This document shows, in pieces, positions 27,452 to 31,143 of a DNA stretch of 62,355 bases. Below the pieces are notes generated by a model. That model was not told where the DNA came from. It searched no databases and worked only from the letters and a program-made list of their open reading frames with translations. Position numbers and translations under genes: made by a program. The stretch is from Alphaproteobacteria bacterium (lineage in GTDB: Bacteria; Pseudomonadota; Alphaproteobacteria; RF32; CAG-239), in the NCBI GenBank assembly GCA_017479985.1, contig JAFVBL010000010.1, forward strand, positions 1 through 62,355. Direction: 5' to 3'. Each line of letters opens with the position of its first letter. Position 1 is the first letter of the stretch.

Positions 27452-27901
27452 ATGTTTGTCAAAATAGTTACGGTTATTGCAATGGTATTGTTTTTACAAG
27501 GTTCAAAAAATGTTTGTGCGCAACAGTTTACGGATGCGGAAAATCAGGAAATGGCGAAACCGATTGCTTTGGTGGAAGGGCTTGAAAATTCGGAAACTGT
27601 TGCTTTGGAAGCATTTGATCCGACAATCAGTTATTATGTGCAAAACTTGAATTTGTCTCCGGATCAATTGGATCAGGCACAGAGAATCAGTGAGGCGGAG
27701 CAGTTGAAAAAAGACGATTTGTTGCGTCAGATAGAAGCGTTGCGCAAAGAAGCGTATAACTTGGAAGCGGGAAGTCTGATAGCATTTGAAGCGATATTGA
27801 CCGATGCACAAAAAGCTACTTTTAGGGAATTGCGTGCGGGTACAGATAGTAATGTGATTGAATCCACCGATGAAAACATCGAAGAGGTGTTAAATAAATA
27901 A
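27452..27901 (+). CDS. Exported helical hypothetical protein (Spy/CpxP-like features)
   Basis: Signal-like N-terminus; LNLSPDQ and ILTDAQKATF LTxxQ-like motifs. Confidence 0.55.
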   Translation: MFVKIVTVIAMVLFLQGSKNVCAQQFTDAENQEMAKPIALVEGLENSETVALEAFDPTISYYVQNLNLSPDQLDQAQRISEAEQLKKDDLLRQIEALRKEAYNLEAGSLIAFEAILTDAQKATFRELRAGTDSNVIESTDENIEEVLNK

Positions 27902-28012
27902 TGTAAAATCAATATATTATAAGAATACACGAAAGAAAGAAAAATTTTTTTATCGGAAATGAAAGATTTTTGTTGCATTCTAAAAAAAATGTATTAAAAG
28001 AGAGTGAGTTAT

Positions 28013-28089
28013 CGGAGTGTAGCTCAGCCTGGTAGAGCGCTACGTTCGGGACGTAGAAGTCGCTGGTCCGAATCCAGTCACTCCGACCA
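28013..28089 (+). tRNA. tRNA-Pro (anticodon CGG)
   Basis: CGGAGTG/CACTCCG acceptor, CTACG-TTCGGGA-CGTAG anticodon arm, encoded CCA; T-loop reads TCCGAAT. Confidence 0.93.
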
Positions 28090-28097
28090 AACTTAAC

Positions 28098-28127
28098 AAG
28101 TCGTCTTTAAGGGCGGCTTTTTCTTTT
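28098..28127 (+). terminator. tRNA-Pro terminator
   Basis: AAGTCGTC-tttaa-GGGCGGCTT followed by a T-tract. Confidence 0.7.
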
Positions 28128-28183
28128 ATTTTCAATAACTTAAGCTGGTCCGTATGATATGTTTTTAAAAATGCTGTTTTTTG

Positions 28184-28498
28184 GGTTCATCGTCAAAGAT
28201 AGGGGCAAGAGTAAAAAATTATAAAAGTTAAAAGTCATGGTTCATCGTCAAAGTTGGGGGCAAGAGTAAAAAATTATAAAAGTTAAAAGTCATCAGGTTG
28301 ACCTCGTAATTAAAGTTTAAGCACATAAAATTCTAACACGCAAGCGATAATTTTCAAAATTTCTAAAACCGTACGCCCGCCTTTGTATCAGTTTCATTTT
28401 CCTGTGAAATCCCTCGGTAATTCCATTTGTTCTGGTAAATCTAGGTTCATCGTCAAAAGTGGGGGCAAGAGTAAAAAATTATAAAAAGTATAAGTCAT
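28184..28498 (-). mobile_element. Three tandem ISL3 right-end fragments (28184-28238, 28239-28443, 28444-28498)
   Basis: Each begins GGTTCATCGTCAAA. The middle copy extends into the transposase 3' end (reverse complement of RFTRTNGITEGFHRKMKLIQRRA...) and matches the window termini. Confidence 0.85.
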
Positions 28499-28518: not shown

Positions 28519-28998
28519 TTAAAATACAGGATCGCAGTAGTTAAATGCACATTCTTGTATGTTAGATTTATCCGGCAACACGCATTTTTCCATACAATTC
28601 TCATATTCTTTATTGTTATTATATGAGTGTATTGAAAACAACGCTAAAACTATCCACAAAATAATATGTCTGTGTATCCACGGATTATATGTTTTATGTT
28701 TAATTGCGATTCCACTTTGCAATATCAATAATAATGGAGCAACTATAATATACACCTTTGCACTGTAAACTAAAACAGTCATAATTACCATAAATATGCC
28801 TTCAATAATACATCCTTGCAAACTGTTTTCTACAATTTTCAAATTATCCGTCAATGCTGTAAGTATAAACACAAAAAGCACAATTAACGTGGATGATATA
28901 AAGATGGTCTTTGCTAAAATGCGGCTGACAAAATTACAGCGTACATTAAGATCAATCATATTTTTTTGCCAATACGCACTCCAATCAATTTTTTGCAT
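28519..28998 (-). CDS. Hypothetical membrane protein (about 3 TM, Cys-rich C-terminus)
   Basis: 159-aa ORF with an AAAGG RBS and hydrophobic helices; AT-rich. Confidence 0.65.
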   Translation of the reverse strand: MQKIDWSAYWQKNMIDLNVRCNFVSRILAKTIFISSTLIVLFVFILTALTDNLKIVENSLQGCIIEGIFMVIMTVLVYSAKVYIIVAPLLLILQSGIAIKHKTYNPWIHRHIILWIVLALFSIHSYNNNKEYENCMEKCVLPDKSNIQECAFNYCDPVF

Positions 28999-29058
28999 AT
29001 TCGTTACCTTTCTGTTTTGATGTTATTATACATATTCTATTTTATTTCTCCTTAAAAT

Positions 29059-29610
29059 TCAATTTATACAACAATGACATAGTGACTTGAGCAATATGGC
29101 TATTGGAGCACCCATCCATAATAAATAAAGAATATGAAGCAAAAATGGTATTACTTCATCCACAAATTTATCCGTCCATTTTTCCAGTATTGATAATGTT
29201 TTTTCTTGGAATAGAATATAAAATCCTAATATGATAGCCATAGGTTTGGAACACCAAATTGTAATCCTCCAAATAACAGATAAGATGTTCTCAATAGCAC
29301 TAAAAATATAATCAATAGCCTGAAGAATGCTCCAAATTGCGTGAGGATACGCTTCAAATAGAAATACCGAAACAAACACTATTATTTCCAAAAGCAAAAA
29401 TATGCCGCAACCGCGAAGTATTCCTTGCCGCGGTATTGTTATGATATTCCGGTAAATTCTGTATAAAATGTTGTTTTCATACTTCCATAGTTTATCCAAT
29501 TCTTCATTTGATGTTATGTCAAAAGAAGATGAAAATATGCCTTTGTTTATTAACTCCTCAGCACGTTTTTGTCTTTGCTCTTGAAAATGTCTTACCATAT
29601 CTGCATACAT
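29059..29610 (-). CDS. Hypothetical membrane protein downstream of the SAM riboswitch
   Basis: AGGGGA RBS then ATG 29610; about 183 aa with 3-4 hydrophobic segments. Confidence 0.6.
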   Translation of the reverse strand: MYADMVRHFQEQRQKRAEELINKGIFSSSFDITSNEELDKLWKYENNILYRIYRNIITIPRQGILRGCGIFLLLEIIVFVSVFLFEAYPHAIWSILQAIDYIFSAIENILSVIWRITIWCSKPMAIILGFYILFQEKTLSILEKWTDKFVDEVIPFLLHILYLLWMGAPIAILLKSLCHCCIN

Positions 29611-29658
29611 AGCAATTCCCCTAAAAGTTGTTATCTCCGTATCAACCTTTAAAGAGGG

Positions 29659-29688
29659 CAAAAAATAAACCCATCGATGACGACGGGC
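29659..29688 (-). terminator. Riboswitch expression-platform terminator
   Basis: Minus strand CCCGTCG-TCAT-CGATGGG followed by TTTATTTTTT. Confidence 0.75.
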
Positions 29689-29698
29689 TTTTCTATCT

Positions 29699-29782
29699 AC
29701 CTATCGTCCAAGCTTTAGCACCGTACATCTTGCCGGTTGCTGTGTGGTCATAGGGCTTGTCCCTCGCACACTCTTTATAGGT
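29699..29782 (-). ncRNA. SAM-I superfamily riboswitch aptamer (SAM-I or SAM-I/IV variant)
   Basis: Minus strand ACCUAU-AAAGAG-UGUG-CGAGGGAC-AAGCCC-UAUGAC-CACAC-AGCAACC...GGUGCU-AAA...GAUAGGU. P1, P2 with kink-turn GA motifs and P3 GCAACC/GGUGC are all recognisable. Confidence 0.85.
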
Positions 29783-29789
29783 TATTTGT

Positions 29790-29818
29790 AATATATCGCA
29801 AAATTTTTCGTTTTGCAA
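29790..29818 (-). promoter_or_regulatory. Sigma70 promoter for the riboswitch leader
   Basis: TTGCAA-17 nt-TATATT; predicted start near 29783, at the 5' end of P1. Confidence 0.65.
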
Positions 29819-30459: not shown

Positions 30460-31020
30460 CTACGAACCTGATTTTACAATCTCTATCCGATATCTTCTAT
30501 ATTTTTGACCGTTGCTCTCCCACGGAAGCGTAATTATATTCTCCAAAATGCCGCCGTTTTTTTCGATGGCTTTCCAAGAGCCTATATTATTATCTTTGGC
30601 AGCAATCAATAACTTCTTCATACCCAGTTCTTGGGCCTTTAAAATAAGTAATGCCAAACCTTTCGTGGCATATCCCATTTGCCTGAATCTAGGCGTAATA
30701 CCGTATCCGACATTTCCGCCGACATACATCAAAAATTCATTTAATTCCGTTCGCAGAAAGAAAGCTCCGATAAACTGTTTATTATCAACCAGCCAATACG
30801 GAATTTGCGGTACATTCGGATAATACTTACCATTATCCCGCAGCTTCGGTGTCGGATTATAAGGTTTTAAAATTTTTGTTGCCAGATATGTATCAAAATC
30901 TTTTTCAATCTCCGCTATTTCTTCCTGACTTATCGGAGATTTTGAACCAGAATAAAATCCTTCTTTCAGTGCTGCAACATAGCTGCTTTTATATTTTTTA
31001 TCCGGTGTTACCAATTCCAT
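30460..31020 (-). CDS. GNAT-family acetyltransferase
   Basis: YWLVDNKQFIG, GGNVGYGITPRFRQMGYAT and N..SWKAIEKNGG motifs; start at ATG 31020. Confidence 0.9.
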   Translation of the reverse strand: MELVTPDKKYKSSYVAALKEGFYSGSKSPISQEEIAEIEKDFDTYLATKILKPYNPTPKLRDNGKYYPNVPQIPYWLVDNKQFIGAFFLRTELNEFLMYVGGNVGYGITPRFRQMGYATKGLALLILKAQELGMKKLLIAAKDNNIGSWKAIEKNGGILENIITLPWESNGQKYRRYRIEIVKSGS

Positions 31021-31143
31021 AACATCCCCCTTTCGCACACATTGCTCACCCAAATATACAATAACTCGAAAACAATGTAAACAATAAAAAAGCTCGGGGA
31101 CTAACCAAAGGTTAATTCTCGAGCTTCTTTTGTTTCTTGTGTC

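Follow-up and report, generated by a model that had tools for sequence, protein, structure and literature searches.

A predicted SAM-I-class riboswitch without P4 as a portable leader of orphan genes in ruminant-gut Alphaproteobacteria

Riboswitches of the SAM-I class, named for their ligand S-adenosylmethionine (SAM), elsewhere govern the metabolism and transport of methionine and cysteine, to which unknown genes found under them are usually assigned (PMC3766115). Riboswitch regulons normally guide the assignment of function: genes that follow a SAM riboswitch are counted among the methionine or SAM genes. Here we analyse a SAM-I-type RNA in contig JAFVBL010000010.1 of the Alphaproteobacteria bacterium assembly GCA_017479985.1 (the window, 62,355 nucleotides), where it stands on the minus strand in front of two orphan open reading frames, ORF1 and ORF2. 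We consider it fairly probable that this RNA is a working OFF riboswitch of the SAM-I class without helix P4, serving as a portable leader for lineage-specific accessory genes that are switched on by scarcity of SAM or methionine. What is probably new here is the multi-copy SAM-I leader placed before orphan cargo, together with a P4-less aptamer and a probable second layer of control.

The closest described relatives are the S-box (SAM-I) leaders of Bacillota, such as B. subtilis yitJ and T. tengcongensis metF. The window RNA has the same helices P1 to P3, the same loop at the kink-turn position of P2, the same pseudoknot PK-1 and the same SAM-contact bases, and would follow the same OFF logic through a P1/antiterminator/terminator relay. 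Unlike them, it has a 4-nt linker for P4, an additional long-range helix between the 5′ end and the strand opposing the Shine-Dalgarno sequence (anti-SD and SD), and an SD hairpin; its host is an alphaproteobacterium, and its regulon consists of orphan accessory genes, not of met, cys or SAM genes. The SAM-IV and SAM-I/IV riboswitches belong to the same ligand-pocket clan, and the absence of P4 from the junction is shared with SAM-IV. In SAM-I/IV the P2 helix is undivided, PK-1 is missing and P4 lies outside the junction, while SAM-IV possesses PK-2 and P5 (PMC6890682). The window RNA, in contrast to SAM-I/IV, keeps a divided P2 (P2a and P2b) and PK-1, and no matching Rfam model supports the PK-2 and P5 of SAM-IV in it. 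SAM-II (RF00521), the usual SAM riboswitch of alphaproteobacteria, shares the ligand and the host class and has an unrelated fold.

The aptamer (29698-29783, minus strand) matches the Rfam model RF00162 (SAM-I) in Infernal with 58.7 bits against a gathering score of 44.4 (E 4.9e-11); the alignment, at 29783-29698, covers the full model, positions 1-108. The SAM-I-type aptamer proposed in the original prediction is thus confirmed by the covariance-model check suggested there: RF01725 (SAM-I/IV) gives 27.8 bits, below its gathering score of 41.1, and RF00634 (SAM-IV) has no match at E <= 10 anywhere in the same genome. This is the sole SAM-I match in that genome (1.18 Mb, 83% complete), and related leaders from other genomes and metagenomes score between 55.7 and 66.4 bits. 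Equivalents of the SAM-contacting U7, G11, A45, U57/G58 and U88, read from the sequence beforehand, fit the consensus in the conserved blocks AAGAG (G11), GCAACC (A45) and GGUGC (U57) and in the A-U pairs of P1, and they are invariant across the relatives' leaders. The two departures from consensus noted at the same time are equally plain in the alignment: position 8 is A in place of C, and 18 consensus positions of P4 are deleted. In the shorter of two possible registers, the one that covariation supports, the P4 slot is the 4-nt linker GACG (29708-29705, minus strand); in the alternative register it is the antiterminator. We therefore file the RNA as a SAM-I variant: a SAM-I core with a 4-nt linker for P4 and, judging by its sequence, a predicted SAM sensor.

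The helices of the core are all on the minus strand. P1 pairs ACCUAU (29782-29777) with AUAGGU (29704-29699), P2a pairs 29771-29767 with 29746-29742, P2b 29763-29761 with 29755-29753, and P3 29741-29734 with 29723-29717. The internal loop at the kink-turn position of P2, CGA/UAUGAC, agrees with the consensus GA and UGA. By complementarity, PK-1 (29709-29759) joins CAAG of the P2 loop (29759-29756) to CUUG of J3/4 (29712-29709). In an alignment of 20 leaders, pairing amounts to 93-100% in P1, P2a, P2b, PK-1, P3 and the terminator. Changes from G-C to A-U are seen in P2a, and P1 in its short register shows double compensatory changes in L061/L062 (CUCAU/AUGAG) and L066 (UCCUAU/AUGGGA; related leaders carry L numbers and their genomes G numbers throughout). 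The four perfect pairs of PK-1 are invariant in 20 of 20 leaders; lacking covariation, they agree with the pseudoknot and do not prove it.

Downstream of the aptamer lies an intrinsic terminator (29660-29690, minus strand), AAGCCCGUCG-UCAU-CGAUGGGUUU followed by A and U6, which a terminator scan matches. Its hairpin (29690-29667) comprises 10 pairs, five of them G-C, with the loop UCAU and ATTTTTT behind it, and follows the 3′ strand of P1 after 8-11 nt, depending on how the stem is counted, in accord with the 11 nt first given. Among relatives, a hairpin of -7.5 to -16 kcal/mol with U6-U8 occurs in about 29 leaders, the terminator is 99% paired in the 20-leader alignment, and compensatory changes are found as AGCC/GGCU (L019, L011b, L063) and AAUCC/GGAUU (L060, L067). 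Pairing in the same relatives reveals an antiterminator (29679-29708, minus strand), in which GACGAUAGG (29708-29700) binds CCCGUCGUC (29687-29679) and which is mutually exclusive with both P1 and the terminator; 92% of its cells are paired in the 20 leaders, and two of its pairs are changed on both sides. Taken one at a time, roughly 29 leaders keep the helices of both the OFF and the ON fold. Upstream, a promoter-like site, TTGCAA-17-TATATT (29790-29818, minus strand; 9/12 in a consensus scan), ends its -10 box 7 nt before the aptamer and probably serves as the promoter. Promoter-like boxes stand at the same distance from the aptamer in most related leaders, though the upstream DNA is not conserved.

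The similarity between the strands of this relay raises the question of register. Infernal draws an aptamer of about 86 nt without P4 in the window and nine relatives, and one of about 115-120 nt with a long P4 in eight others (L002-4, L006-7, L017, L019, L025), the latter with slightly higher scores (61-66 against 56-61 bits). The true aptamer might then be a four-way junction in which our antiterminator would be a long P4, with AUGGGUU (29674-29668) closing P1, so that the SAM-bound aptamer itself acts as the terminator or two registers bind SAM. This closing strand directly adjoins the U-run, CUUUUUU directly follows the 3′ strand of P1 in L078, and the 3′ strand of P1 and the 3′ arm of the terminator are near-duplicates (CGAU(A/G)GGU). 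However, Infernal's long P4 is the helix ACGAUAGG/CCUAUCGU, whose 5′ arm holds the 3′ strand of P1 and whose 3′ arm doubles as the terminator's 5′ arm, which identifies it as the antiterminator of a P1/antiterminator/terminator relay, and from such a relay the resemblance of strands follows automatically. The substitutions are more telling. In L019, L011b, L063 and L075 the 3′ arm of the terminator has become GAUAGGCUU, with AAGCC compensating in the 5′ arm (GGCUU/AAGCC), and the 5′ strand of P1 is still AACC. These changes, like AAUCC/GGAUU in L060 and L067, preserve the terminator and destroy the P1 of the long register, and so favour the short one. A branched structure is, moreover, a poor intrinsic terminator, and we count this against the four-way junction as well; on balance we think that reading improbable and retain the short register, with its separate terminator, in what follows.

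L078 itself deserves a remark. At L078:5124-5283 (minus strand), before a gene of the FamC2 type described below, stands a leader variant with neither antiterminator nor terminator hairpin, in which the 3′ strand of P1 leads straight into CUUUUUU and then into an anti-SD block and the SD.

The leader contains a further element past the terminator. Helix P0 (29644-29783, minus strand), likewise recognized from pairing in relatives, joins the 13-nt 5′ strand AACCUAUAAAGAG (29783-29771), which comprises the 5′ strand of P1 and J1/2, to CUCUUUAAAGGUU (29656-29644), directly after the U-run, and cannot coexist with the folded aptamer. In the 20-leader alignment 91% of P0 is paired, every intact leader gives a duplex of -10 to -17 kcal/mol, and compensatory changes occur in L014b (A-U to G-C, at G1-C) and L066 (A-U to U-A, at U2-A). 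The 3′ strand of P0 overlaps an anti-SD strand: in the minimum free energy (MFE) fold of the window leader, GCCCUCUUUAAAGGUUG (29659-29643) pairs with CAACUUUUAGGGG (29630-29618) in a putative SD-sequestering hairpin (29618-29659, minus strand), which in relatives of the ORF1 type takes the form of a 12-bp helix CUCUCUUUAAAG/CUUUAAGGAGAG. A miniature inverted-repeat transposable element (MITE), suggested by the 13-nt inverted repeat around aptamer and terminator, was considered and rejected, as homology runs on through the SD and RNA pairing accounts for the repeat.

Folding without constraints places different leaders on different sides of the switch. The window leader and L002 adopt P2 and P3 with P1 open, the terminator and the SD hairpin, and L005, L015 and L021 adopt the antiterminator and an extended P0 with the SD free; the two states are near iso-energetic at about -56 kcal/mol, each being the MFE fold in some relatives. 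With the states imposed, the SD of the window is 71% paired in the OFF fold (aptamer and terminator) and 0% paired in the ON fold (antiterminator and P0), and pairing goes in the same direction in most of the 20 leaders. P0 and the SD hairpin together suggest a second, translational layer of control. As L078 retains aptamer, anti-SD and SD without a terminator, this part appears able to stand alone.

We propose the following course of events. Transcription would start at about 29783, and the aptamer, with P1, the kinked P2, P3 and the pseudoknot between the P2 loop and J3/4, would be complete by about 29699. If SAM is bound, P1 is held, the hairpin 29690-29667 with its U6 can form and RNA polymerase would terminate. 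If SAM is scarce, the 3′ strand of P1 would instead pair with the 5′ arm of the terminator as the antiterminator, allowing read-through into ORF1 and ORF2. In the SAM-free read-through RNA the freed 5′ end AACCUAUAAAGAG would then pair with the segment after the U-run, capturing the anti-SD. Since the 3′ segment of P0 is the anti-SD strand, the SD would be open in the SAM-free fold alone and hidden in SAM-bound transcripts that leak past the terminator. The E. coli lysC riboswitch reportedly also acts at two levels, translation and RNA decay. The likeness lies in one aptamer governing two successive steps of expression; the steps proposed here are intrinsic termination and SD sequestration, coupled by the helix between 5′ end and anti-SD. 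A P4-less architecture combined with such a helix would make a compact natural design for coupling the control of termination and, on our folding models, of translation. In silico, the mechanism of the RNA part is well supported; SAM binding and termination we infer from it.

Could the aptamer have lost SAM sensing altogether? The missing P4, the A at position 8 and a cargo unrelated to methionine might point to a decayed or re-purposed RNA, now a constitutive attenuator, an RNA-stability element or a sensor of S-adenosylhomocysteine or another SAM analogue, and plainly decayed copies do exist. These (L024, L064, L071 and L014b, at L014:4128-4287) are decayed or interrupted by a mutated P3 or by a large insertion after AGCAACCGG, and indicate that the leader family also suffers loss. 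Yet they differ visibly from the about 30 copies that keep the core nucleotides, the pseudoknot and both folds under apparent purifying selection; the score of the window aptamer is well over the curated threshold, and its SAM-contact positions fit the consensus. We regard a loss of SAM sensing as very improbable.

Related leaders were gathered from the contigs of ORF1 homologues, from SAM-I matches in the genus and from exact-pattern scans of the aptamer core in two collections, which returned 18 stretches among 185,579 species genomes and 20 among JGI metagenomes. Altogether, these four lines of evidence yield 35 distinct leaders, whose carriers are labelled by their NCBI titles as metagenome-assembled genomes (MAGs) of ruminant-gut Alphaproteobacteria. 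Homology begins sharply at the predicted +1 and extends over the aptamer, the terminator and a conserved CUCUUUAxAGGUU block, in many copies taking in the SD as well. Behind the 35 leaders we find about 12 unrelated types of cargo, nearly all orphans, and in L011, L014 and L010/L015 riboswitch-gene cassettes follow one another on the same strand. The whole 5′ untranslated region would thus behave as a portable module, placed before some 12 unrelated and mostly orphan genes in variable regions of low GC content. A phage origin of leader or cargo was examined and set aside: 2.9 million viral contigs contain no match to the core pattern, and PHROGs yields nothing meaningful for the cargo.

In the window, the leader is followed by ORF1 (29059-29610, minus strand), a 183-aa orphan membrane protein whose ATG stands behind a UAGGGG Shine-Dalgarno sequence, and by ORF2 (28519-28998, minus strand), an orphan membrane protein of 159 aa whose C-terminus is rich in Cys, with its own weak ribosome-binding site and a position that makes it part of an operon with ORF1. 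By hydropathy, ORF1 has a soluble helical N-terminus of about 60 aa and then about three transmembrane (TM) segments, with an invariant juxtamembrane motif, YRI(Y/F)RNIITIPRQGIxRGC, and a conserved W..D.FV.E.IP ahead of the last TM segment; ORF2 has three to four TM segments. Neither ORF1 and ORF2 nor the cargo families FamB and FamC (see below) match any family in Pfam, NCBIfam, PADLOC or PHROGs, and ORF1 and FamB have no match among PDB sequences. An AlphaFold2 model of ORF1 from seven sequences is too poor for a fold search (pLDDT 60, pTM 0.24). Homologues of ORF1 form six clusters among 5.8 billion proteins, and a profile search found four representatives among 1.84 billion. All five distinct ORF1 relatives with readable upstream DNA lie behind a SAM-I leader, which answers the earlier question whether homologues also sit behind SAM riboswitches. 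ORF2 has one other cluster of homologues, 79% identical, and is absent behind ORF1 in relatives, where the second gene is FamB (L003, L006, L007). The two membrane proteins first described behind the riboswitch therefore hold as unassigned ORFs with TM-like segments, but not as a conserved pair.

FamB is a soluble family of 157 aa with 42 clusters, all unnamed (e.g. L015:6959-7426, minus strand). It directly follows the leader in L011b, L015, L019 and L025, and does so in distant members at 58% (L058), 52% (L056) and 39% identity (L063; hhalign probability 99.9%). The most distant member examined (40%) alone has no leader; it lies behind an IetA-like AAA+ ATPase and beside GmrSD. A confident AlphaFold2 model of FamB (pLDDT 87, pTM 0.85) found no match with Foldseek in PDB or BFVD, and the model thus possibly represents an undescribed fold. 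That the 145-aa cargo of L061/L062 also belongs to FamB could not be demonstrated. FamC has 184 aa and is often followed by a protein of about 196 aa and similar layout, termed FamC2; two-gene orphan pairs are formed by FamC with FamC2 and by FamB with a 214-aa protein. Further first genes encode an M20 deacylase of the ArgE/DapE type (L017 and L021), a 231-aa protein with a borderline HNH motif (PF13391, 20.2 bits against a cut-off of 21), a peptide of about 45 aa with the pattern MWY..LPTPY, and several singletons. A small ORF of the MWY..LPTPY kind is located between the two consecutive riboswitch cassettes of L011 (L011:2540-2620, minus strand), its frame split by an A8 run; with one A less it would take the form of about 44 aa that is intact in L036 and L079.

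The original prediction had left two options for this locus, a new function linked to SAM or sulfur and an imported riboswitch captured by accident. This alternative proves too narrow for a portable leader standing before many unrelated orphan genes: a module so distributed makes an imported origin and a real, selected regulon both likely. A one-off accidental capture is itself unlikely, given that ORF1 lies behind the leader in five of five cases and FamB does so down to 39% identity. A classical methionine regulon, in turn, fits poorly with the range and kind of cargo genes, their patchy occurrence and their location; the usual methionine, cysteine or SAM gene context of SAM-I was not encountered, the M20 deacylase being the one cargo that could fit it. 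From this we infer a role for the cargo: most likely, the ORF1-ORF2 operon has an accessory, lineage-specific function rather than one in methionine biosynthesis.

The orphans may all the same belong to an unrecognised methionine, SAM or sulfur economy, with ORF1 and ORF2 as membrane components of uptake or export and FamB and FamC as salvage enzymes or binding proteins. SAM-I regulons and the gene assignments made from them usually run this way (PMC3766115), and the deacylase of L017 and L021 could free methionine from an N-acyl form. A need for uptake is plausible too, as a few queries found no MetX- or MetI-like match in the 83%-complete window genome, and the links of the leader with ORF1 and FamB, old as they are (to 39% identity), would be expected of a functional tie to SAM. 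But the cargo bears no sequence likeness to families of transporters, enzymes or binding proteins, and FamB has no fold match either, the model of ORF1 being too poor for that comparison. Three TM segments in about 180 aa are few for a transporter, the cargo includes an HNH-motif protein and peptides of about 45 aa, and the loci are patchy in the genus and lie in variable low-GC regions. We therefore judge a hidden sulfur economy unlikely, if the strongest competitor of a lineage-specific accessory regulon.

A more specific form of accessory function would make the leader a SAM-scarcity trigger of conflict-type cassettes, in which a fall in SAM, which could come from methionine starvation or a SAM-degrading phage enzyme, derepresses toxic, defensive or competitive effectors. 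Candidates would be ORF1, ORF2, the HNH nuclease with the small peptide, FamB with the 214-aa protein, and FamC with FamC2. The riboswitch would then sense on behalf of an immunity or competition system and not of a biosynthetic pathway. Known defence systems were searched for and dismissed, PADLOC giving noise for the cargo and the suggestive context being the weak one of the leaderless FamB near the IetA-like AAA+ ATPase and GmrSD; among the top-ranked papers of a literature search, none joined a SAM riboswitch with phage defense or a SAM lyase. We rate this version as speculative and quite unlikely.

Several observations weigh against a SAM-responsive leader of accessory genes as we favour it. 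Whole-structure covariation in the 20-leader alignment is just modestly above controls, since most pairs never vary among leaders so closely related, and the loss of P4 could weaken or change ligand binding. Taken by itself, the promoter match does no better than chance (14 sites against 11.2 expected), so that the promoter originally called holds by its place before the aptamer, in the window and in most relatives, and not by its score. In several leaders the SD is partly paired even in the modelled ON fold. On the side of the cargo, the M20 deacylase fits a classical methionine-salvage regulon, and the orphans could have roles in sulfur or methionine metabolism that have gone unrecognised. 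Whichever way this falls, the result would be new: either an unknown branch of SAM or sulfur metabolism, or the recruitment of a metabolite riboswitch as a general trigger of accessory genes under starvation or stress. Each outcome is directly testable because the class of ligand is known.

The distribution of SAM-I in the class bears on its origin. It is found in five of 25 genomes of the genus, in none of 16 genomes of other families sampled first, and in three of 350 in an even sample of the class outside the genus, one of these below threshold; the remark that SAM-I is unusual in alphaproteobacteria is well founded. Translations read by eye place the two full matches of this sample before classical SAM-I cargo, a homoserine O-acetyltransferase-like (metX) gene with a pyridoxal phosphate (PLP) enzyme in L031 and a metN-metI-like pair in L032. 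SAM-II (RF00521) has no match in the 16 genus genomes searched and occurs in three of nine from other families of the class. In three ruminant-gut MAGs, whose nearest relatives do not overlap those of the window genome, the leader takes a sister form with a lengthened P3 (L018, L020 and L024, from genomes G376-G378), making cross-lineage transfer possible. A Bacillota donor was considered for this form and discarded: the three have no T-box, one or two SAM-I matches each and a TolC-like gene, and hence are not typical Bacillota (L018 shows TolC-, MurT- and GatD-like genes, read by eye). The class probably came in by horizontal transfer and later spread within the lineage, an example of a 'Gram-positive' riboswitch class spreading inside Alphaproteobacteria.

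The surroundings of the window locus are those of a variable region. Its boundary (28013-28498) is marked by tRNA-Pro(CGG) (28013-28089, plus strand, ARAGORN), followed to about 28498 by end remnants of an ISL3-type insertion sequence (IS), with a C-terminal transposase fragment read by eye. Between 28 and 34 kb the GC content falls from 0.40-0.47 to 0.33-0.35. The order ymdB, LTXXQ-motif protein, tRNA-Pro(CGG) (27452-28089) is kept in G003 and G013 (L081, L083), and none of the window genes of 28.1-35.7 kb occurs in the approximately 8.5-9 kb past the tRNA there; as synteny stops at the tRNA, the ORF1-ORF2 operon lies in the variable region. The window genome, at 83% completeness, shows no copy of FamB, FamC or the HNH protein. 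Sister genomes with a named group are labelled Alphaproteobacteria bacterium, uncultured Rhodospirillaceae, Proteobacteria or Azospirillum sp., and come from rumen or ruminant gut.

Some features of the host genomes are recorded here in their own right. MetK of the genus (C1:36345-37385, minus strand, in the window genome) is short, at about 333 aa, and very divergent: its N, M and C domains score 76.5, 28.9 (just below the cut-off) and 50.8 bits in Pfam, against more than 200 bits for the C domain in other families of the class, and it contains the key motifs GHPDK, GDQG and GITGRK. The same genome has a sub-threshold T-box-like match at C42:45836-46000 (plus strand; RF00230, 42.7 bits against a gathering score of 93, E 1.9e-8), which, if it is a T-box, would be unusual for an alphaproteobacterium. 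Just upstream of the window leader, on the same strand, stands a GNAT gene (Acetyltransf_3; 30460-31053, minus strand). The same arrangement is seen in G017 (L004:1815-2942), where a gene of the chloramphenicol-acetyltransferase family (PF00302, 153 bits) joins the GNAT gene near the leader, and in L054 a GNAT gene is found near a leaderless FamB as well.

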